A stretch of 30,608 nucleotides of DNA, taken from an uncultured Acidobacteriota bacterium (GTDB lineage: Bacteria; Acidobacteriota; Polarisedimenticolia; J045). The translations under genes were made by a program, and so were the position numbers. The notes beneath the pieces are model-generated. The model was not told the origin of the DNA. It made no database searches and was given only the letters and a program-made list of their open reading frames with translations. The stretch spans positions 1 through 30,608 of the forward strand of contig CAVPCQ010000001.1 in assembly GCA_963702425.1 (NCBI GenBank). Reading direction: 5' to 3'. Below, piece by piece: positions 18,089-30,608 of this stretch. The stretch's first letter is position 1; the number at the start of each line of letters is the position of its first letter.

Positions 18089-18203
18089 CGGTTCAGGCGC
18101 CGACCTCCCCGCTCCCGTAGTACCTGCGGCCCAGCCAGAGCGCGACGTTCACGAGGCCGATGAGGACCGGCACCTCGACCAGCGGCCCGATCACCGCCGC
18201 GAA
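18089..18203 (-). repeat. Duplicated 3' end of acr3 (direct repeat of 23451-23565)
   Basis: 112 of 115 bases identical by hand alignment (mismatches at 18113, 18126, 18129). Encodes [36 protein letters not shown]. Confidence 0.95.
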
Positions 18204-22999: not shown

Positions 23000-23454
23000 G
23001 GCATGACCTCCGGTTGGGATCGGCACGGTCCCGCGACGACAGAATCCGCCCGTTGCGCGAGTGCTTTCAACACCTGCAAGGGCGAATTACTTCTATTGTT
23101 TGCAGGCTACGCGAGAATGATTCCGGGTAAGCGATCGTGTCCTTTGCCTCAACTCGATCCCCATGAACCCCCAACAGCCCGCGCGCGGCGCCCTCGTACC
23201 TCGGAACAGAGTCTCCGGGAGGCTTCACCTTCGTCGTGCTCCCCGCCGTGGCCGCCGCATGCTCCTCTGCCATTCCGCCCCTATTCGCAGGCTGCCGGGC
23301 GTGTTCTCGCGCCGAGCCGACGTCATCTCCGGGCGCTGCTGTCGTCTCTCGGACTCGGCACGGCACTGGGACCTGGCATGGGCGCCGACCGCCTCATCGA
23401 AGCGACCATGGCGACTGCCCTGGAGACCGGGATTTTCCGTGGCGAGGGACCGGT

Positions 23455-24558
23455 TCAGGCGCCGACCTCCCCGCCCCCGTAGTACCTCCGCCCCAGCCAG
23501 AGCGCGACGTTCACGAGGCCGATGAGGACCGGCACCTCGACCAGCGGCCCGATCACCGCCGCGAAGGCGGCGCCGTGGTTGATGGTGAAGGTCGCGACGG
23601 CCACGGCGATCGCCAGCTCGAAGTTGTTCGACGCGGCGGTGAACGACAGCGCCGCGGTCTGGCCGTAGGTCGCACCGACCTTCCTGCTCATGAAGAAGGA
23701 GAGGAAGAACATCACCACGAAGTAGATCAGGAGCGGGAGGGCGATGCGGACCACGTCGAGCGGCAGCTCGACGATCTTCTCGCCCTTGAGCGAGAACATC
23801 ACGACGATCGTGAAGAGCAGCGCAACGAGCGTGATCGGGCTGATCTTCGGGATGAACCGGGTGTCGTACCAGCTCCTGCCCTTGAGCCTGATCAGCGAAA
23901 ACCGAGTGATGATCCCCGCCAGGAAGGGAATGCCGAGGTAGATGAAGACGCTCTCGGCGATCTCGCCGATCGTGATGTGGACGGCCACCCCCTGAAGACC
24001 CAGCCAGGTCGGCAGGATCGTGATGAAGAGGTAGGCGTAGACCGAGTAGAGGAAGACCTGGAAGACCGAGTTGAGGGCCACGAGCCCCGCGCAGTACTCG
24101 CTGTCGCCCCGGGCCAGGTCGTTCCAGACGATGACCATCGCGATGCAGCGGGCGAGTCCGATCAGGATCAGGCCGACCATGTACTCGGGCTTGTCGCGCA
24201 GGAAGAGCACCGCCAGGACGAACATCAGGATCGGGCCGATGATCCAGTTCTGGACCAGCGACAGCCCGAGGACCTTCGTGTTGCGGAAGACCCGGCCCAT
24301 CTCCTCGTACCGCACCTTCGCCAGCGGCGGGTACATCATCAGGATGAGCCCGATGGCGATCGGGATCGAGGTCGTCCCGACGTTGAACCGGTTGATGAAC
24401 GGCACGACGCCCGGAAACAGGAACCCCGCGCCGACCCCCACTGCCATCGCGAGGAAGATCCAGAGCGTGAGGTAGCGGTCGAGGAACGACAGGCGCTTCG
24501 CCACACCAGCCGCTTCGCGCGGGGCCGGGCCGTTCACGGCGGTAGATCCCCTGCTCAT
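23455..24558 (-). CDS. acr3: ACR3-family arsenite efflux transporter
   Basis: [67 protein letters not shown]. Confidence 0.97.
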
Positions 24559-24571
24559 CGAGTGCCTCCTG

Positions 24572-24814
24572 TCAGCGCGCGCCGGCCAGCCAGCCCGTGA
24601 TCTCGGCTTCCGTCGGAACCCGCCCCGAGCAGACCAGCTTCCCGTCGACGACGAGCCCCGGCGTGGCGAGGATCCGGTACTGCACGATCGCGCCCATGCC
24701 GGTGACCTTCTCGACCGACGCCTCGACGCCGAGGCCGGCCGCGGCCCGCGTCACGAGATCGGCCAGCCGCGAGCAGTTGGGGCACCCGGGTCCCAGGACC
24801 TTCACCTCGATCAT
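24572..24814 (-). CDS. arsE: Small thioredoxin-like redox protein (MTH895/ArsE family), 80 aa
   Basis: [44 protein letters not shown] 24814 overlaps the OsmC stop. Confidence 0.85.
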
Positions 24815-25275
24815 CGGTGTCCCTCCTCGACGATCTCTATCGAAGGCTCGACGACGAGCGCGGACTTGATCGAGTTGGCGACCAGGCTGTATTTCTGCGC
24901 GCCCTCGAGCGCGCGGCGGGTCCGGGCCTCGACGACTGCCGGCGCTTCCGCCCCGGCCGCGACGCGGATGCGCGGCGTCAGCCGGACCTCCGTGAAGATC
25001 TCGGTCCGGTCGAACTCGATCCGCTTGGTCCCCTCGGCCCGGCACTCGTACGCCAGCAGCTCGAGCTTGAAGCGCTCGGCCGCCCAGACGAACATCAGCA
25101 TCACGCAGGTGTTGACCGCGGCGACGAACGCGTCCTCCGGCGTCAGGACCCCGGCATGGCCGTGGGCGTCAGGGGGCGCGGAGAACGTCATCTCCGGGCC
25201 GTTCCCCAGCGCCACCCGGCCGAGGTGCTCCCCGGTCCAGGTGACCGTCGCGTGGTAGATCGCGGTCCGGCTCAC
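24811..25275 (-). CDS. OsmC-family protein, 154 aa, second canonical Cys replaced by Ser
   Basis: GTG 25275 overlaps the upstream stop. YHATVTW..SAPP..G..TPEDAFVAAVNTCVM..FTEVRLTPRI..AQKYSLVANSIK. Confidence 0.85.
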   Translation of the reverse strand: MSRTAIYHATVTWTGEHLGRVALGNGPEMTFSAPPDAHGHAGVLTPEDAFVAAVNTCVMLMFVWAAERFKLELLAYECRAEGTKRIEFDRTEIFTEVRLTPRIRVAAGAEAPAVVEARTRRALEGAQKYSLVANSIKSALVVEPSIEIVEEGHR

Positions 25276-25727
25276 GGGCCGGCCGACGGCAGCGTCGCGG
25301 TGAAACGGCGCCCGCGCGGTGGCTTCAACAGCCCGTCGACGAGGGCGACCACCCGCGCGGCCGTCGCCTCGACCGCCTGCCGGCCCGCGTCGTTCAGGCG
25401 GCGCCGCCCCTCGACCGCCCCGATGCCGCACTCGGTCACCAGCTCGCTCACCACGACGGACGCCGCGGGCTCCGCCGAGTAGGTCGCGGTGCCGTGCGCG
25501 GCGCAGCGCTTCTCGCAGCCGTCGATCGTGACCGTCGGGTAGAAGCGCGCGAAGGCGCGGTCCCCTTCCCCGCCGGCGAGGAACAGCGGCAGGCAGATCG
25601 TCACCGTGTCCTCCGGGCGCAGCTCGTGCAGCACCCGCAGCGCCGCGAGGCGGGTCACGGTCCCCTCGGCGATCTCCTCGCCGGAGCAGGCCACGATCCC
25701 GACCTTGCGCTTCGGCAGCTCAGGCAT
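25272..25727 (-). CDS. DGC-domain putative zinc-binding protein 2 (151 aa)
   Basis: MPELPKRKVGIVACSG..TICLP..TIDGCEKRCA. GGAGGGG lies upstream of ATG 25727. Confidence 0.88.
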   Translation of the reverse strand: MPELPKRKVGIVACSGEEIAEGTVTRLAALRVLHELRPEDTVTICLPLFLAGGEGDRAFARFYPTVTIDGCEKRCAAHGTATYSAEPAASVVVSELVTECGIGAVEGRRRLNDAGRQAVEATAARVVALVDGLLKPPRGRRFTATLPSAGP

Positions 25728-26143
25728 CGGTCCCCTCCCTGCGGGCGTGCTCGTCGACGATCGCGGCGATCTCTTCGGCGAGAACGCGGGCAAGCTGCTG
25801 CCCGGCCTCGTTCAGCTCCGCGATCCCCTCCGGCTTCAGCTTCGGGTGGCGGCGGAAGGTGTCGATCACGGCCAGCTCGCGCACCGTCGCGCGCGCCGCT
25901 CGCCTTCGCCATCTTGGCCGCGCACGCCAGCTTGCAGCCGTCGATCGTCACGACCGGACGGCTCGCCACCGCGTCCCGCGCCTCCTCGTCGCCGAGGACC
26001 AGGCGCGAGAGCGCGACCAGGCGCGCGCGGCCCGGGCGCAGCGCCTCGACGACCTCGTAGGCGGCCTCGCGGCTGACGGAACCGAACGGCTTGCCGATCC
26101 CGCTGCACGGGATGACCACGGTCTCGCTGCTCGTCCGCTTCAT
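25720..26143 (-). CDS. DGC-domain putative zinc-binding protein 1, frameshifted in a (CG)n run at ~25888-25896
   Basis: MKRTSSETVVIPCSGIGK..TIDGCKLACAAKMAKASG continues in another frame as TVRELAVIDTFRRHPKLKPEGIAELNEAGQQLARVLAEEIAAIVD..TDA*. That tail aligns with LNDAGRQAVEATAARVVALVD of the neighbouring DGC protein. Confidence 0.8.
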
Positions 26144-26601
26144 CGCCCGCCGATCTCCTCTTCCGCGCGCCGCTTCATCAGCTCGAAGTAGGCCGGCGGC
26201 TCGAGCAGCGGCGGGCCGGCGGGGGCCGACGGGTCCAAGGCCACGCGGGCCATCCACCCCGCGCCGTAGGGGTCCTGGTTGATCCGCTCCGGGGCGAGAA
26301 CCAGCTCCGGGTTGACCTCGACGATCGTCCCGGCGACCGGGCTGCCCAGCTCGGTCACGATCTTGATCGTCTCGAAGTCGACGAACGGGTCGCCCGCGGC
26401 CAGGTGCGTCCCGGCCGGGCGCACGGTGGCGAAGGTCACGTCGCCGCTGCTCTGCTGCAGGTAGTCGCTCACCCCGAGGCGCATCGTGCCGTCCGACTCG
26501 GGGCGCGCCCAGACCCCTTCCGCGGTGTAGGCGCGGTCCCGCGCCACCCGCAGGATGAACTTGTCTATCCTTGCCTCGAGGTAATCCGGACCCTGCGTCA
26601 T
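26140..26601 (-). CDS. Glycine cleavage H-protein-like lipoyl carrier (153 aa)
   Basis: YTAEGVWA..LGVSDYLQQSSGDVTF..FETIK..SPVAGTIVEVNPEL..PERINQDPYGAGW. The lipoyl-Lys position is retained (codon 26362-26364). Confidence 0.9.
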   Translation of the reverse strand: MTQGPDYLEARIDKFILRVARDRAYTAEGVWARPESDGTMRLGVSDYLQQSSGDVTFATVRPAGTHLAAGDPFVDFETIKIVTELGSPVAGTIVEVNPELVLAPERINQDPYGAGWMARVALDPSAPAGPPLLEPPAYFELMKRRAEEEIGGR

Positions 26602-26640
26602 GCTCGCGATTCTCCGGGCGACGCGCCGAGGAACTTAGAG

Positions 26641-26666
26641 TACACTATTTCGGGAATTGGAGAAAT
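26641..26666. promoter_or_regulatory. Candidate ArsR operator and -10 box in the divergent promoter
   Basis: TACACT (26641-26646) is followed by the inverted repeat ATTTC-GGG-AATT-GGA-GAAAT (26647-26666), which overlaps the arsR start region. AT-rich island in GC-rich DNA. Confidence 0.65.
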
Positions 26667-26667
26667 G

Positions 26668-27105
26668 ATGCCGGCCTCGATCCCCTCGACCGCCTCGCGG
26701 CTGAAGGTCCTCGGCCACCCGGTCCGATTGCGCCTTCTGGCCGCGCTGGCGGCCGGGGAGCTGTGCGTCTGCCAGCTCACCGCCCTGCTCGGGCTCGCCA
26801 ACTCCACCGCGTCCGAGCACCTGGCGGAGCTGCGTGCGGCCGGGCTGGTCGTCGAGCGGAAGGACGGGCGCTGGGTCCTCTACCGGCTCGTCGAGCCGTC
26901 GTCCCGGCCGGCGTGGCTCGACGAGGTCCTGGAGGACCTCGTGCGCGACGCCCAGGTCGTCGAGGATCGCCGCATCCTGCGCTCGCTCCGGGCGATCCCC
27001 CTCGAGGAAGTCTGTCGCGCCGACCGCGATCTGGTCCGTCTCGGCATCGTCAAGCCCGCGCGCCGCGCGCCGCGGCCCAAACAGGTAAGGAGCAACGCTC
27101 GATGA
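26668..27105 (+). CDS. arsR: ArsR/SmtB-family repressor
   Basis: LKVLGHPVRLRLL..GELCVCQL..STASEHLAELRAAGLV..RKDGRWVLY. ELCVC is the As(III)-sensing box. Start is 26665 or 26668. Confidence 0.93.
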   Translation: MPASIPSTASRLKVLGHPVRLRLLAALAAGELCVCQLTALLGLANSTASEHLAELRAAGLVVERKDGRWVLYRLVEPSSRPAWLDEVLEDLVRDAQVVEDRRILRSLRAIPLEEVCRADRDLVRLGIVKPARRAPRPKQVRSNAR

Positions 27106-27539
27106 CAAGACGCGCTTTCGTCCCGGTCGCGCTGGCCGTCCTCACCCTGCTCTCCACCTTCGGCGTTACCGCGTTCGCCGGCGACGGGCCGGCGGCGGGC
27201 GACCGGCAGGTCGTCGCCTACTACTTTCACGGCAAGGTGCGCTGCCGAACCTGTGTCGGGATGGAGGGCATGACGACCGCGGTCCTGAAGACCGACTTCC
27301 CTGCCCAGCTCAAGGACAAGTCGATCGACTGGCGCGTCGTCAACTACGACGAGGCGGCGAACGAGCACTTCATCGAGGATTTCAAGCTCGTCGGCCCGTC
27401 CGTCGTGCTGGTGGAGACGGTCGGCGGCCGGCAGGTTCGCTACCGGAACCTCGACAAGATCTGGCAGTTGGCGCACGAGGAAGACGAGTTCAAGCAGTAC
27501 ATCAGGACGCAGATCGCAGGCTTCCTGAAGCAGGGCTGA
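27102..27539 (+). CDS. arsF: ArsF-like exported thioredoxin-fold protein (145 aa)
   Basis: AAGGAG before ATG 27102, which overlaps the arsR stop. Signal peptide; AYYFHGKVRCRTCVGME..NEHF..NLDKIW. Confidence 0.75.
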   Translation: MTRRAFVPVALAVLTLLSTFGVTAFAGDGPAAGDRQVVAYYFHGKVRCRTCVGMEGMTTAVLKTDFPAQLKDKSIDWRVVNYDEAANEHFIEDFKLVGPSVVLVETVGGRQVRYRNLDKIWQLAHEEDEFKQYIRTQIAGFLKQG

Positions 27540-27555
27540 TCCGTGCGACCGGCCC

Positions 27556-28245
27556 GTGGCTGAACTGCTCGCCGGCGCCGCGACGGCGCTGTGGCTGGGG
27601 ATCCTGACCTCGATCAGCCCCTGCCCCCTGGCGACCAACGTCGCGGCGGTGTCGTACGTCGGGACGCAGGTCGACCGTCCACGGCGCGTCGTCTGGGCCG
27701 GCCTGCTCTACGCGGCCGGGCGCGCGGCGGCGTACGTCGCGGTCGGCGGCCTGCTCGTGCTCGGCCTGCTCTCCGCCCCCAGGCTGTCGCACGGGCTGCA
27801 GCGCTGGATGACGGCGGCGCTGGGGCCGATCCTGCTGCTCACCGGACTCGTGCTGCTGGGTGCGGTCCGGCTGCCGCTCGGCGGCCGCGGCGTCTCGGAG
27901 TCGCTGCAACGCCGCGTCGATCGGATGGGATTGCCGGGGGCCGCACTGCTGGGCTTCGTCTTCGCGCTCAGCTTCTGCCCGATCTCGGCGGCGCTGTTCT
28001 TCGGCAGCCTGGTGCCGCTCGCGCTCGAGACGCGGTCCAGCGTGCTGCTGCCGTCGGCCTACGGGCTGGGGACCGCGGTCCCGGTGCTCGGCTTCGCGAT
28101 CCCGCTGGGCCTCGGCGCGAGCTGGGTCGGATCGGCGTTCGATCGCGTGACGCAGGTCGGGCGCTGGGCGCGCTGGCTTACCGCCGCGGTCTTCCTGGCC
28201 ATCGGCGGCTGGTTCACCGCGCGCGCGACGCTGGGGCTGTTCTGA
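27556..28245 (+). CDS. arsG: ArsG-like / CcdA-DsbD-family membrane protein
   Basis: LGILTSISPCPLATN and FALSFCPISAALFFGSLVP; about six TM helices; directly follows the arsF-like gene. Confidence 0.8.
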   Translation: MAELLAGAATALWLGILTSISPCPLATNVAAVSYVGTQVDRPRRVVWAGLLYAAGRAAAYVAVGGLLVLGLLSAPRLSHGLQRWMTAALGPILLLTGLVLLGAVRLPLGGRGVSESLQRRVDRMGLPGAALLGFVFALSFCPISAALFFGSLVPLALETRSSVLLPSAYGLGTAVPVLGFAIPLGLGASWVGSAFDRVTQVGRWARWLTAAVFLAIGGWFTARATLGLF

Positions 28246-28414
28246 GCGGCGTCGCAGGCCGGGAAGCCGGCCCGGAACACGTCAGGAGCGCGAACGGCCG
28301 GGATGCGTTATCATTATTGTTCGGCGTCCGTCGAAGTGACCGGTGCGACGTCACCACCCAGTAAGCCGGTCGCGAGCCTCGCCTCGCGGGCGTTTCCCAG
28401 GAAGGACTTAGCCC

Positions 28415-28642
28415 ATGTCCAAGACCTCTTCGACCTTCGGCGTCAGCGAGCGGGTGATTCATCCCATCTACGGGACCGGGACGATCGCGGACGTGACCCA
28501 GCCCTACACCATCATCGACTTCGACAAGGGCGGGCGGAAGAAGTTCGTGACCAGCATGGTCCAGCTCGAGGCGACCAGCGTCGAGGCCCCGACCAAGCCG
28601 GCGTCCAAGTCGCGCGCCAAGAAGGCCAAGTCCGCCAAGTAG
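28415..28642 (+). CDS. Small SH3/Tudor-like protein with a basic tail (75 aa)
   Basis: AAGGA before the ATG. ERVIHPIYGTGTIADV..IIDFDKGGRKKF resembles the UvrD/PcrA C-terminal and CarD-type Tudor folds. Tail KPASKSRAKKAKSAK. Confidence 0.7.
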   Translation: MSKTSSTFGVSERVIHPIYGTGTIADVTQPYTIIDFDKGGRKKFVTSMVQLEATSVEAPTKPASKSRAKKAKSAK

Positions 28643-28676
28643 CGGCGGTCGGGCGCTGCGGTCGTCGGTGCCCCTG

Positions 28677-30567
28677 TCACCGACGCTGTGGTTTCGCCAG
28701 CCGCGCCAGCTGCTCCGCCGTCAGCGGACTGCACCAACCCGAGTAGTTCACCAGCGGCTTCGGAGGGTCGGCCAGGGGAACCCACTTCCCGTCGGCGCGA
28801 TCGAGCCACGCGATGTCCCAGCTCATCCCCTCCACCACCGGGACCACCCCCTTCACGCTCCGCACCTCGCCGTTCTCCCACCAGAAGGCGCGGATCTGGC
28901 CGTCCGCGGCGTCCAGCACGAGCGGGCTCGCGTGGCACGCTTCGCACGGGCGTCCCTCCTTCATCACCGAGTGCGAGAACCAGGGCGCGAACGTGATCAT
29001 CGTCTTCCCGCGGTAGACGTAGCTCAGGAAGTTGCCCAGCGTCACCTTCCCGCGGCGGTTGACGAGGAAGAGCATCTCGGTCAGGAGGACCGACTCGTCC
29101 CGGTTCTCGGCGACCCGCGTGTCGACGTGGCAGTTCACGCAGGTCCAGTACTCGTGGGTGTGGCAGGCCGTGCAGTCGACCTTGCCGGCGTGCACGGTGT
29201 GGCTGCGGCTGGGCGGGAGCGCGGTGTGGCAGCCCTCGCAGCTCGCCGAGACGGCGCCTTCCTGGAGGCACGAGTCGTAGGCCACGCCGTCGCCGTGGAG
29301 GTCGCGCGCGGCATGGCAGCTAGTGCAGGTCATGCCGCGCGCCGCGTGGATGTCCTTCGTCGCGTTCTCGGGATCGACCGAGTGGCAGCGGGGACAGGCC
29401 TGCTCGGCGCGGGCCGCCGTCGCGGCGTAGGCCGCCTGGCCCGCGGCCTCGACGCGGTGGCAGACGTCGCAGCTCTTCACGTGGCACTTGGCCTTCATGC
29501 AGCCCATCTGGTCGACGGTGAGGCCCGTCAGGCGCTCGAGGCCTCCCTGCTCCTTCGCGTACCAGTACGCGATCCCGCGGTTCGTGGAGTGCAGGCTCTT
29601 CTCGTAGAAATTCGTGCCGGCGGTCAGCGCCGGCGCGGGCAGCGTGCCGAGGAACTCGAGCACGGCGGCGCTGAACTCGCCGGGCTTCTCCATGTTCACC
29701 GCGTGGCCCGCCCCGGGAATCGAGACCCGGCGGGTCCGCGGCACCTGCTTTTCGATCAGCGCCGCGATCTCGTGGATTCCGGCGGCGTCCAGTTCGCCGA
29801 GCCACGAGCAGCACCGGGGCCTGGATCTCGCGCAGCCGCCCGATCGCCGGCGGATCCGGGCGCAGCATCGGCCCGCTCCCCTCGAACTTCGCGACGGAGT
29901 TCCGCGCCATCGCGCCGACCTTCTCCCGCACCGCCGGATCGACCTGGCTCGGGGCGCGCTTCGGCCCGTCGGTCCAGGCCCGCTGGTAGGCCTCGACGAA
30001 CGCCGCGGCGTCGCCCTCGTGCGCCGCCTTCTCCTGCTGCCGTTCCGCGGCCAGGACCTCCGGGTCCTTGAACTCGTACCCGGAGAGGCCCGGACCGACC
30101 AGGACCAGGGCCGCGGGCTCCTCCGGGTGTGCGATCCCGAAGTCGATCGCGACGCGCCCGCCGAGCGACATCCCGACCAGCACCGGCCGCTCGAGCTGCA
30201 GCGCGTCGATCAGCGCCTGCAGGTCGGCTTCCGGCGAGTAGGTCTGGGGCCCGGTCTCGCTCAGGCCGTGCGCGCGCGCATCGTACCGCACGACGCGGAA
30301 CCGCTTCGCCCACTCGAGGAACTGCGCGTCCCACATCCGCCGGTCGAGCAGGCCGCCGTGCAGCAGGACGAGCGGGCGGCCCTGCCCGGCGTCCTCGTAG
30401 TAGAGCCGTGCCCCGTTGGTCTCGACGAAGCCGGTGCGGACGGTGGGGGCGCCGGGGGGAGTGCCGGGAGCGTCGCCGGCCATGACGAGGCCCGGAAGCG
30501 GCGTCAGCAGGGCCAGCAGAGCCACGAGGAGAACCGAGCACGCGCGCGGGCCGCGATCGTTCGACAT
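28677..30567 (-). CDS. Secreted alpha/beta-hydrolase fused to a multiheme cytochrome c (~629 aa after correcting a +1 frameshift at ~29802)
   Basis: Signal peptide; LLHGG and GMSLGG. After removing one base the frame reads LVLGELD..PGAGHAVNMEKPGEF, then seven CxxCH motifs and one CX4CH motif. Confidence 0.85.
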
Positions 30568-30608
30568 GGGCGCCCCCTCTCCCGGGACGTGGGGCCGGTC
30601 GGCTGACC

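Follow-up and report, generated by a model that had tools for sequence, protein, structure and literature searches.

An ars locus with a lipoyl-carrier cassette

The window analyzed here is a 30,608-nucleotide stretch of DNA (positions 1 to 30,608 of contig CAVPCQ010000001.1) from an uncultured Acidobacteriota bacterium. It contains an arsenic resistance (ars) locus in which GcvHL, a paralog of the glycine cleavage H protein with the sequence features of a lipoyl carrier, is encoded in one cassette with two DGC-domain proteins (DGC-A and DGC-B) and an atypical OsmC-like protein, followed by ArsE and the arsenite permease Acr3. Why would an arsenic operon carry its own lipoyl protein?

On the minus strand, the gcvHL gene (26601-26140) encodes a protein of 153 amino acids (aa) with an N-terminal DKFxF extension and an ETIK motif that contains the presumptive lipoyl lysine, K80. 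Downstream lie the genes for DGC-A (26143-25720), a three-cysteine DGC paralog that is frameshifted near 25886 and matches Pfam DGC over its first 81 aa; DGC-B (25727-25272), a four-cysteine DGC paralog in a short form of 151 aa; and the atypical OsmC-like protein (25275-24811; 154 aa; Pfam OsmC, 42.3 bits), which carries C57 and C78. The run is completed by a small thioredoxin-like protein of the ArsE type with a GCPNC motif (24814-24572; TIGR00412, 91.2 bits against a cut-off of 62; Pfam Thioredoxin_3) and by the arsenite efflux permease Acr3 (24558-23455; TIGR00832, 462.7 bits against 282.8). Divergent from the cassette, across an intergenic region of 63 bp (26602-26664) that is presumed to hold the promoter or promoters and an ArsR site, the plus strand encodes an ArsR/SmtB repressor (26665-27105; NF033788, 88 bits; Pfam HTH_5), whose GELCVCQ segment contains the ELCVC As(III)-type site, an ArsF family protein (27102-27539; NF040494, 108 bits against 60) with an N-terminal hydrophobic segment and a CRTC motif, and a DsbD_2/CcdA-like membrane protein of the ArsG family (27556-28245; NF040495, 265 bits against 200; Pfam DsbD_2). 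The ArsE, ArsF and ArsG families are all represented in the locus above their NCBIfam cut-offs, and ArsR exceeds its own as well.

The first-pass annotation of the window had given the same gene content, order and strands, which open reading frames (ORFs), Pfam and NCBIfam bear out. It also had the minus-strand genes overlapping start to stop into acr3. The five genes from gcvHL to arsE do overlap (ATGA, ATGCCTGA, GTGA and ATGA at the successive junctions, as read from the sequence), but arsE and acr3 are separated by a spacer of 13 nt that contains AGGAGG. The proposed promoter of ~65 bp with one operator exists as a divergent gap, and its operator is putative. Within 26602-26664, a repeat search found no inverted repeat and a promoter scan returned 0 sites; a 12-bp near-palindrome, TAGaGTACaCTA, was spotted by eye only, and the corresponding region of a same-genus genome, 95% identical overall, is too close to inform on an operator. 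Short contigs at least 90% alike to parts of the cassette (for example, 25334-25499) occur in two RNA-library runs and one possible RNA run, which is not proof of transcription, and related DNA is found in sediment and freshwater metagenome runs with shares of 0.17 to 0.32. Pfam and NCBIfam profile searches found no gcvT, gcvP, ligase or arsC gene elsewhere in the window. This absence had been reported and is true of the window, but for arsC it is only local, because the host genome has an arsR-arsC pair of the low-molecular-weight phosphatase (LMWP) type on contig C17.

In the window, one extra base within a GC run near 25886 disrupts the DGC-A frame. Contig C10 carries the locus a second time, covering window positions 23459-30608 at 98.85% identity (82 differences, 4 of them indels); this copy lacks the extra base and encodes an intact DGC-A of 140 aa. 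One contig in each of two public runs likewise lacks a base, at 25886 or 25888. Given the intact C10 copy, the public contigs and other frame breaks in the assembly, the frameshift is probably an assembly error, and the two DGC genes originally reported are both present, with DGC-A frameshifted in the window copy. The C10 copy of acr3 is itself broken by a single-base indel (window position 23876), an indel near 29801 between the copies breaks an alpha/beta-hydrolase ORF in the window (29320-30567, minus strand), and Lpd genes on contigs C30 and C35 are also split; the assembly seems indel-prone.

The remaining genes of the window encode a histidine kinase, a subtilase, beta-helix proteins and a 1369-aa FG-GAP protein. 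The last ~115 bp of acr3 (23451-23565) are repeated at 97% identity 5.2 kb away (18089-18203), the two repeat copies flank the FG-GAP gene, and the C10 copy (125032-132181) stops exactly at the repeat, which looks like either two haplotypes or strains or an insertion beside acr3. On the other side of the locus, a 75-aa ORF without a family match lies 3' of arsG (28415-28642, plus strand). Just past arsG, a 355-aa ORF (28677-29744, minus strand) with many CxxCH motifs, of the multiheme cytochrome c type, has a weak Pfam Cytochrome_C7 match and directly adjoins the ORF of the hydrolase.

Conservation of the cassette and its fused sister form

A genome scan with a GcvHL alignment, taking one genome per species, confirmed 583 relatives, of which the best 80 loci were studied. 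In 57 of them, tblastn with the window proteins placed GcvHL beside DGC genes, OsmC-like genes or both, and nearly all of these share the order GcvHL-DGC-DGC-OsmC. Of the remaining 23, 22 are ordinary gcvH loci and one is a decayed module (L031). The decayed locus (L031:6299-8632) retains ArsR and radical SAM genes, a GcvH-like gene with a broken frame and a DGC-A gene cut after ~40 residues, with a DsrE-like gene upstream. The 57 loci belong to Chloroflexota (40), Acidobacteriota (7), Planctomycetota (3), Aminicenantes (2), Bathyarchaeota (2), Verrucomicrobiota (1), Myxococcota (1) and Nitrososphaerota (1). The cassette is spread over at least seven phyla, Archaea included.

The ORFs of the 57 loci were clustered, and recurrent clusters were named by Pfam; many contigs are short, so that all counts are lower bounds. 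GcvHL is present in 56 loci, DGC in 55 (102 ORFs), ArsR in 50, the OsmC-like protein in 49 and ArsE-like proteins in 42. Acr3 follows with 23 loci and LMWP ArsC with 20; the lack of arsC seen in the window is thus no feature of the module. Less frequent are a radical SAM/SPASM cluster (11 loci), PF04060 Fe-S proteins (8), ArsD (7), ArsA, ArsP, ArsG and TauE (6 each), ArsF and DsbD_TM (5 each) and an AhpD-like CMD cluster (4). The radical SAM/SPASM protein has ~417 aa (e.g., L008:7735-8985), occurs also in L125, L127, L129, L133, L135, L137 and L139, and comes closest, among NCBIfam models, to the maturase of tungsten-cofactor oxidoreductases (318 bits, below the required 380).

Of 56 loci, 33 have a specific ars gene beside the cassette, as do 25 of the 31 whose flanks reach at least 5 kb upstream and at least 7 kb downstream. 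Where an ArsR gene lies on the same strand within 1.8 kb upstream, its product has a CxC site in 32/32 cases and C[VA]C in 29/32. In the three planctomycete loci, the order is changed to GcvHL-OsmC-ArsE-DGC-DGC-ArsF-ArsF-ArsG with the same genes, and the cassette content thus survives rearrangement. A sample of 401 genomes from the window's own phylum gives the same picture from the side of DGC, a domain found in 26 of them: all 12 of the other genomes with multiple adjacent DGC matches also have GcvHL and ars genes alongside, and 9 of 13 single-DGC loci are cassettes of the ArsR-ArsP-ArsE-DGC type, with 4 lacking an ars match. A single-DGC ars operon also appears in a preprint on P. mercurii, where DGC is listed as a protein of unknown function. 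The cassette is a real conserved unit linked to ars genes, and the neighborhoods speak against the case, foreseen in the first-pass annotation, that the module occurs mostly without ars genes.

A sister form joins the two central domains in one protein. In three genomes of the phylum sample (G032, G051 and G090), a DGC domain is followed by GCV_H (DGC::GcvH) in operons that begin with ArsR, an AhpD-like CMD protein, Thioredoxin_3, a 125-aa protein and a 2x[4Fe-4S] ferredoxin, continue with DGC::GcvH, DGC and DGC, and end with either a lipoate-protein-ligase-type gene (TIGR00545, 99.8 bits, under the cut-off) or thioredoxin and DsbD_TM genes, then LMWP ArsC and Acr3. A protein search with the fusion gave 1086 matches at E <= 1e-5; among the matches listed, 120/120 carry both PF01597 and PF08859, under the annotations "glycine cleavage system H protein" or "putative zinc-binding protein". 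The four cysteines and the ES.K lysine motif are kept in 121/121 fusions. As a Rosetta-stone protein, the fusion is strong evidence that DGC and the H domain work together.

A metagenome scan for fusion loci, in which the best 80 of 397 relatives were studied, showed how constant this setting is. The ferredoxin lies directly upstream of the fusion, preceded by the 125-aa protein, in 47/47 loci with at least 1 kb of upstream sequence, and DGC-A-like and DGC-B-like genes lie downstream in 70/80 and 64/80 loci. Directly behind DGC-B follow a ligase (9/38), thioredoxins (8/38), which come with DsbD_TM, or something else or nothing recognized (21/38). ArsE is present in 44/80 and ArsR in 37/80 fusion loci, and a specific ars gene in 17/80 overall and 12/22 of those of at least 10 kb. 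The OsmC-like protein is found in only 1/80 fusion loci as against 49/57 unfused loci. The 125-aa protein (L132:9835-10209, minus strand; L134:7361-7735; L119:7143-7517; L068:6085-6438) has five invariant cysteines and no Pfam or NCBIfam match; it is called HdrA-N-like here after a likeness that is weighed below. In L121, it stands beside a lone DGC gene in the absence of GcvH. An unfused counterpart of the sister form, in the same order, exists in the Bathyarchaeia locus L068.

The core common to both forms is a lipoyl-type H domain with at least two DGC proteins, usually accompanied by an ArsE-type thioredoxin and ArsR. Given that ferredoxin, HdrA-N-like protein, thioredoxins and DsbD/CcdA-type membrane proteins surround this core, traffic of electrons and dithiol-disulfide exchange are suggested. 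The first-pass annotation had offered electron donation as one role of the lipoyl protein, and the ferredoxin and HdrA-N-like genes upstream of the DGC-GcvH core, together with the recurring thioredoxin and DsbD-type partners, lend that mechanism indirect support.

Could the cassette instead be unrelated to arsenic, as a hitch-hiker in mobile ars islands or as a unit under a non-arsenic ArsR/SmtB sensor? ArsR/SmtB regulators respond to many signals, and within the available flanks a specific ars gene is absent from 6/31 well-flanked loci, from 23/56 overall and from 10/22 long fusion loci. However, every adjacent ArsR counted has the CxC site (32/32), the linkage persists across at least seven phyla and through changes in gene order, and in the window the cassette is translationally coupled to arsE, which is followed by acr3. 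We give this explanation very little chance.

The carrier, DGC and OsmC-like proteins

GcvHL matches Pfam GCV_H (PF01597; 92 bits against a cut-off of 22) and falls below the cut-offs of the GcvH equivalogs (NF002270, 98 against 117 bits; TIGR00527, 80.5 against 115.85). Its lysine K80 (ETIK) is invariant in 38 aligned sequences, including the canonical GcvH of the host, and the E-[ST]-x-K motif is present in 56/57 GcvHL ORFs of the module, so that the lipoyl lysine is indeed kept, as had been read from the window. Among 5.8 billion proteins, 71 relatives were found, most of them ~149 aa long and 45-62% identical. In a maximum-likelihood tree, 58 module-linked GcvHL proteins and that of L031 form one group on a branch of 0.73, apart from 24 ordinary GcvH proteins (SH-aLRT 81, from a quick search and not starred).

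The host genome (5.1 Mb in 42 contigs; 91% complete, 5.85% contaminated) has a canonical gcvT-gcvH pair (C6:83264-84762); unlike this gcvH, gcvHL is not encoded with gcvT or gcvP. The genome also has Lpd-like genes, one with an LplA/B catalytic-domain gene right behind it. Genes for LplA/B catalytic domains are present in 12/13 module genomes, and LipA likewise in 12/13, a score to be read beside its detection in 12/14 well-known control genomes; LipA is also encoded by G313, a genome of the same genus. It is likely that the GcvHL lysine is lipoylated, given that a dedicated ligase is occasionally present and that 12/13 module genomes have lipoylation genes. A supposed lipoate ligase beside an LMWP gene on C6 proved to be birA-coaX with a housekeeping phosphatase and was discarded. 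A third GCV_H paralog of the host (C39:25367-25705; L086:7191-7880, minus strand; 70 bits), on a very long tree branch, lies beside an NrfD-like membrane protein and a histidine kinase, a context of neither glycine cleavage nor arsenic.

The two DGC proteins are paralogs (hhalign probability 99.8%). Against the Pfam PF08859 cut-off of 27, DGC-B scores 56.6 bits and DGC-A 47.4 as the window fragment or 52.3 as the intact C10 copy. C14, C45, C71 and C75 of DGC-B are invariant (42/42), as are C13, C70 and C74 of DGC-A (42/42), which has only these three invariant cysteines. The Pfam description, as quoted in the literature, gives the DGC domain four conserved cysteines; DGC-B (42/42) and the fused DGC (121/121) have all four, and DGC-A has three only. 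Most DGC-B proteins are ~245 aa long and have an extra C-terminal CxC domain, which the 151-aa protein of the window lacks, as do those of L047, L051 and L065. This extra domain of ~90 aa (~residues 150-245; e.g., L007:8853-9593) has a conserved ATCSCGSGIP motif and no Pfam match.

An AF2 model of DGC-B (pLDDT 88) predicts a four-stranded flavodoxin-like a/b domain, with the cysteines at or just after the C-terminal ends of the neighboring strands 1, 2 and 3. Foldseek with this model returned nothing from the PDB at E <= 0.001, a PDB sequence search gave chance-level matches only, and an ESM Atlas search gave other DGC clusters only. The best VIA-align wide match, the uncharacterized protein 3pu6_A (Z 8.9), and the next, transketolase-C/PFOR domains and HybD proteases (Z 7 to 8.5), are within the common range, and the fold is thus generic flavodoxin-like a/b without a functional clue. 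Predicted complexes of DGC-A and DGC-B with GcvHL scored ipSAE 0.01 and 0.01 against a mark of 0.32, values that, without controls, bear neither way.

DGC was also considered as an LMWP-type ArsC and rejected, with an hhalign probability of 0.2% for DGC-A against 19 LMWP ArsC sequences. Its motifs are C-S-G-x-G-K and C-S-G-E-E, the CX5R loop of LMWP ArsC is absent, and its fold likeness is generic only (2l17, Z 6.4; 8p5n, TM 0.40). These results bear on the proposal that the cassette reduces or desulfurizes pentavalent or thiolated arsenicals (arsenate, methyl or aromatic As(V), thioarsenates), in which, as in sHdr-LbpA, the arm would bring substrate or sulfur to DGC subunits with cysteines or Fe-S clusters. 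The proposal draws on the sister form, which unites a lipoyl protein, an HdrA-N-like protein and ferredoxin in the manner of LbpA-using Hdr-like systems, on the single DGC genes that accompany ArsP and ArsE, on the absence of arsC from the window locus and on the related DNA in sediment and freshwater metagenomes. It is weakened by the 20/57 loci that also have LMWP ArsC, by the dissimilarity of DGC to that enzyme and by the lack of recurring sulfur-transfer genes, of which only a rhodanese and a DsrE-like gene were seen, each in a single locus, and we consider it highly improbable.

The OsmC-like family is ~70% identical between phyla. Its AF2 model (pLDDT 92.5) is nearest to 2onf (TM 0.79) and 2d7v, both OsmC-like proteins without known function, followed by OsmC/Ohr entries; the Ohr-dihydrolipoamide structures 6ebg and 6ebd are among the fold matches. 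The alignment is interpreted with the roles that we take the Cys, Glu and Arg residues of Ohr to play. C57 (51/51) aligns with the peroxidatic cysteine of the Ohr SACF motif in helix 1, and E47 (51/51) with the glutamate of the PE motif of P. aeruginosa Ohr. However, the arginine of the Ohr GGRDG motif is replaced by His17 (47/51), and the place of the second cysteine of Ta0195 in helix 2 (KYC) is taken by Ser130 in a KYS motif (48/51). An extra cysteine, C78, is present in 50/51 sequences in the strand after helix 1. A tblastn search of a plasmid collection with the OsmC-like protein found no match, and hence no cultured plasmid-borne copy in that collection.

The first-pass annotation had invoked the use of lipoylated proteins as reductants by Ohr/OsmC proteins. 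This precedent carries over only in part: the fold, the peroxidatic cysteine and the glutamate are kept, and two defining residues, the catalytic arginine and the resolving cysteine, are absent. In its simplest application, the cassette would do no more than reduce hydroperoxides at the expense of the lipoyl group, which DGC would merely recycle, and would share its regulation with ars genes only because arsenic causes oxidative stress. H-protein/OsmC pairs, reportedly including that of Trichomonas, provide a model, and an AhpD-like CMD protein recurs in 4/57 loci and in fusion loci. Nevertheless, the residue replacements, the absence of the OsmC-like protein from 8/57 unfused loci and from all but one of the 80 fusion loci while GcvHL and DGC stay, and a near-universal ArsR(CVC) linkage that is unusual for a general oxidative-stress gene make a plain peroxidase quite unlikely.

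A possible lipoyl-arm relay in arsenic detoxification

From the gene content, the conservation of the cassette, its ars linkage, the lysine and cysteine residues, the DGC::GcvH fusions and the Fe-S-type neighbors of the sister form, all of which are observed, we infer that GcvHL is lipoylated, in which direction electrons flow, that DGC holds a metal or cluster, how the proteins contact one another and what the final substrate is. We propose, at an even chance of being right, that the cassette is an ArsR-controlled dithiol/disulfide relay on a lipoyl arm that serves ArsE-ArsG-ArsF and the OsmC-like protein. Arsenite would de-repress the operon through the CVC As(III) site of ArsR, and GcvHL would be lipoylated by the cell's own ligase. 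The (dihydro)lipoyl-lysine would then dock on the cysteine centers of both DGC proteins, which as dedicated partners would exchange electrons with it. Both the OsmC-like protein (C57/C78) and the thioredoxin-like ArsE would draw on the reduced arm. ArsE could relay electrons either to the CcdA-like ArsG and the exported ArsF or to an ArsC that is encoded elsewhere and coupled to thioredoxin, and Acr3 would export As(III). The purpose of such a relay would be a private supply of thiol reducing power for arsenic detoxification. The relay is favored on account of the fusion, the neighbors of the Fe-S, thioredoxin and DsbD types and the likely lipoylated lysine.

Several observations weigh against the relay. 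The window form contains neither a ferredoxin nor an Hdr-like gene and hence no evident electron source, and even in the sister form the 125-aa protein resembles HdrA only weakly (E 0.027), over its N-terminal Fe-S domain (7bkb_A, residues 9-96). The OsmC-like protein and the ferredoxin/HdrA-N-like pair are nearly exclusive of each other, which is unexplained. With histidine and serine at the two replaced Ohr/OsmC positions, the substrate of the OsmC-like protein may not be a peroxide, or the protein may not be a redox enzyme at all. Of the 57 loci, only 5 to 6 have ArsF or ArsG in the vicinity of the module. LipA was not found in the host genome, which is 91% complete; nor was LipB. Finally, As(III) has its classic target in dihydrolipoyl groups, and a lipoyl electron carrier that is induced by As(III) is paradoxical unless arsenic is its cargo.

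That paradox is avoided if arsenic itself rides the arm. Dihydrolipoyl-GcvHL would form a cyclic dithiol adduct with As(III) or trivalent organoarsenicals and so protect the lipoyl enzymes as a decoy. It would hand the metalloid to the three or four cysteines of DGC-A and DGC-B and to the OsmC-like protein (C57/C78), from which it would be released to Acr3, with ArsE keeping the thiols reduced. As(III) binds vicinal dithiols such as that of dihydrolipoamide with high affinity, and ArsR, ArsD and ArsA have S3 sites. The strict linkage of the cassette to an As(III)-type ArsR and ars genes, the position of acr3 behind the cassette in the window, the three and four invariant cysteines of DGC-A and DGC-B, placed by the model at the ends of neighboring strands, and an OsmC-like protein that has lost peroxidase residues and gained an invariant second cysteine are all in keeping with arsenic as cargo. 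Nonetheless, Acr3 is present within the available sequence of only 23/57 loci, the ferredoxin and HdrA-N-like genes of 47/47 sister loci point to electron transfer rather than metal hand-off, and five proteins are many for a chaperone. We regard this explanation as unlikely, although serious.

With a similar standing, possible but well short of even, the lipoyl arm may carry not just electrons but the substrate itself, in a new arsenic enzyme of several proteins that follows the logic of glycine cleavage or of sHdr-LbpA. The dithiol would capture a trivalent or thiolated arsenical, and the DGC proteins would be catalytic or receiving subunits with cysteines or Fe-S clusters, fed by ferredoxin in the sister form.

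How does the cassette, whether relay or carrier, compare with known systems? The use of lipoylated proteins by Ohr/OsmC is established, and a GcvH-like donor to OsmC has been proposed in H. denitrificans (bioRxiv 10.64898/2026.10.01.755906). These lipoyl Ohr/OsmC pairs, represented by GcvH_1/OsmC of H. denitrificans and reportedly by Trichomonas hydrogenosomes, resemble the cassette in that an H-protein-type carrier is encoded with an OsmC-fold cysteine protein that keeps the peroxidatic cysteine and the glutamate. The cassette differs in the His and Ser replacements and the new C78 of its OsmC-like protein, in its two DGC proteins, ArsR control and ars-operon setting, and in that the OsmC-like protein is dispensable in the fusion form. 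In sHdr-LbpA sulfur oxidation, an Hdr-like Fe-S complex works with GcvH-like lipoate-binding proteins and dedicated ligases. The likeness lies in a GcvH-like paralog outside glycine cleavage and, for the sister form, in HdrA-N-like and ferredoxin partners and sometimes a lipoate-protein ligase of its own. In contrast, the module has DGC instead of HdrB/CCG or a full HdrA and stands in an arsenic rather than a sulfur-oxidation context; the window form has no Fe-S gene at all, and the HdrA likeness of the sister form is the weak one noted above.

Among arsenic systems, ArsEFG reportedly confers organoarsenical resistance, and members of all three families, by their NCBIfam names, are present in the window locus. 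Unlike in ArsEFG, the gene arrangement has ArsE co-transcribed with the lipoyl cassette and acr3 rather than with arsFG, and across loci the cassette keeps company with ArsE (42/57) far more than with ArsF/G (5 to 6). The module also suggests re-reading ArsE/ArsF/ArsG as a possible CcdA-type thiol relay. The mycobacterial AhpC-AhpD-SucB(lipoyl)-Lpd peroxidase chain and the ars-encoded thioredoxin systems (arsTX) likewise dedicate a lipoyl or thioredoxin relay to a thiol enzyme, and AhpD-like CMD genes recur near the module; they differ from the module, which has neither Lpd nor thioredoxin reductase and whose carrier is a free-standing H-protein paralog with DGC. The ArsD metallochaperone, a cysteine-rich ars-operon protein and potential As(III) holder, offers a further parallel, with ArsD and ArsA present in 7 and 6 of the 57 module loci; the cassette proteins are unrelated to it in fold and family and do not need an ATPase partner. 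No description of an ars system with such a module was found in the literature, in agreement with the first-pass annotation, in a search that left most subscription journals and supplements outside its coverage. The module is best placed as an accessory thiol system of ars operons combined with a lipoyl-dependent cysteine-protein system, and there remains a real chance that it is categorically new.

To our knowledge, lipoate has few jobs, namely in 2-oxoacid dehydrogenases, in glycine cleavage, in donation to Ohr/OsmC/AhpD and in sHdr-LbpA. Here, a dedicated lipoyl-carrier paralog stands under an arsenite sensor and is conserved with two uncharacterized cysteine-rich proteins across bacterial and archaeal phyla. 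The cassette provides an annotation handle for proteins that currently go by the names "glycine cleavage system H protein", "putative zinc-binding protein" and "OsmC family protein". It also makes two questions testable: what the DGC domain does, and whether mostly uncultured organisms supply reducing power or a protected dithiol for arsenic detoxification in this way. If the lipoyl arm is the substrate carrier of an arsenic enzyme, lipoate would gain a new biological role, DGC would gain its first function, and arsenicals would be processed independently of oxygen in mainly uncultured lineages of sediment and soil.

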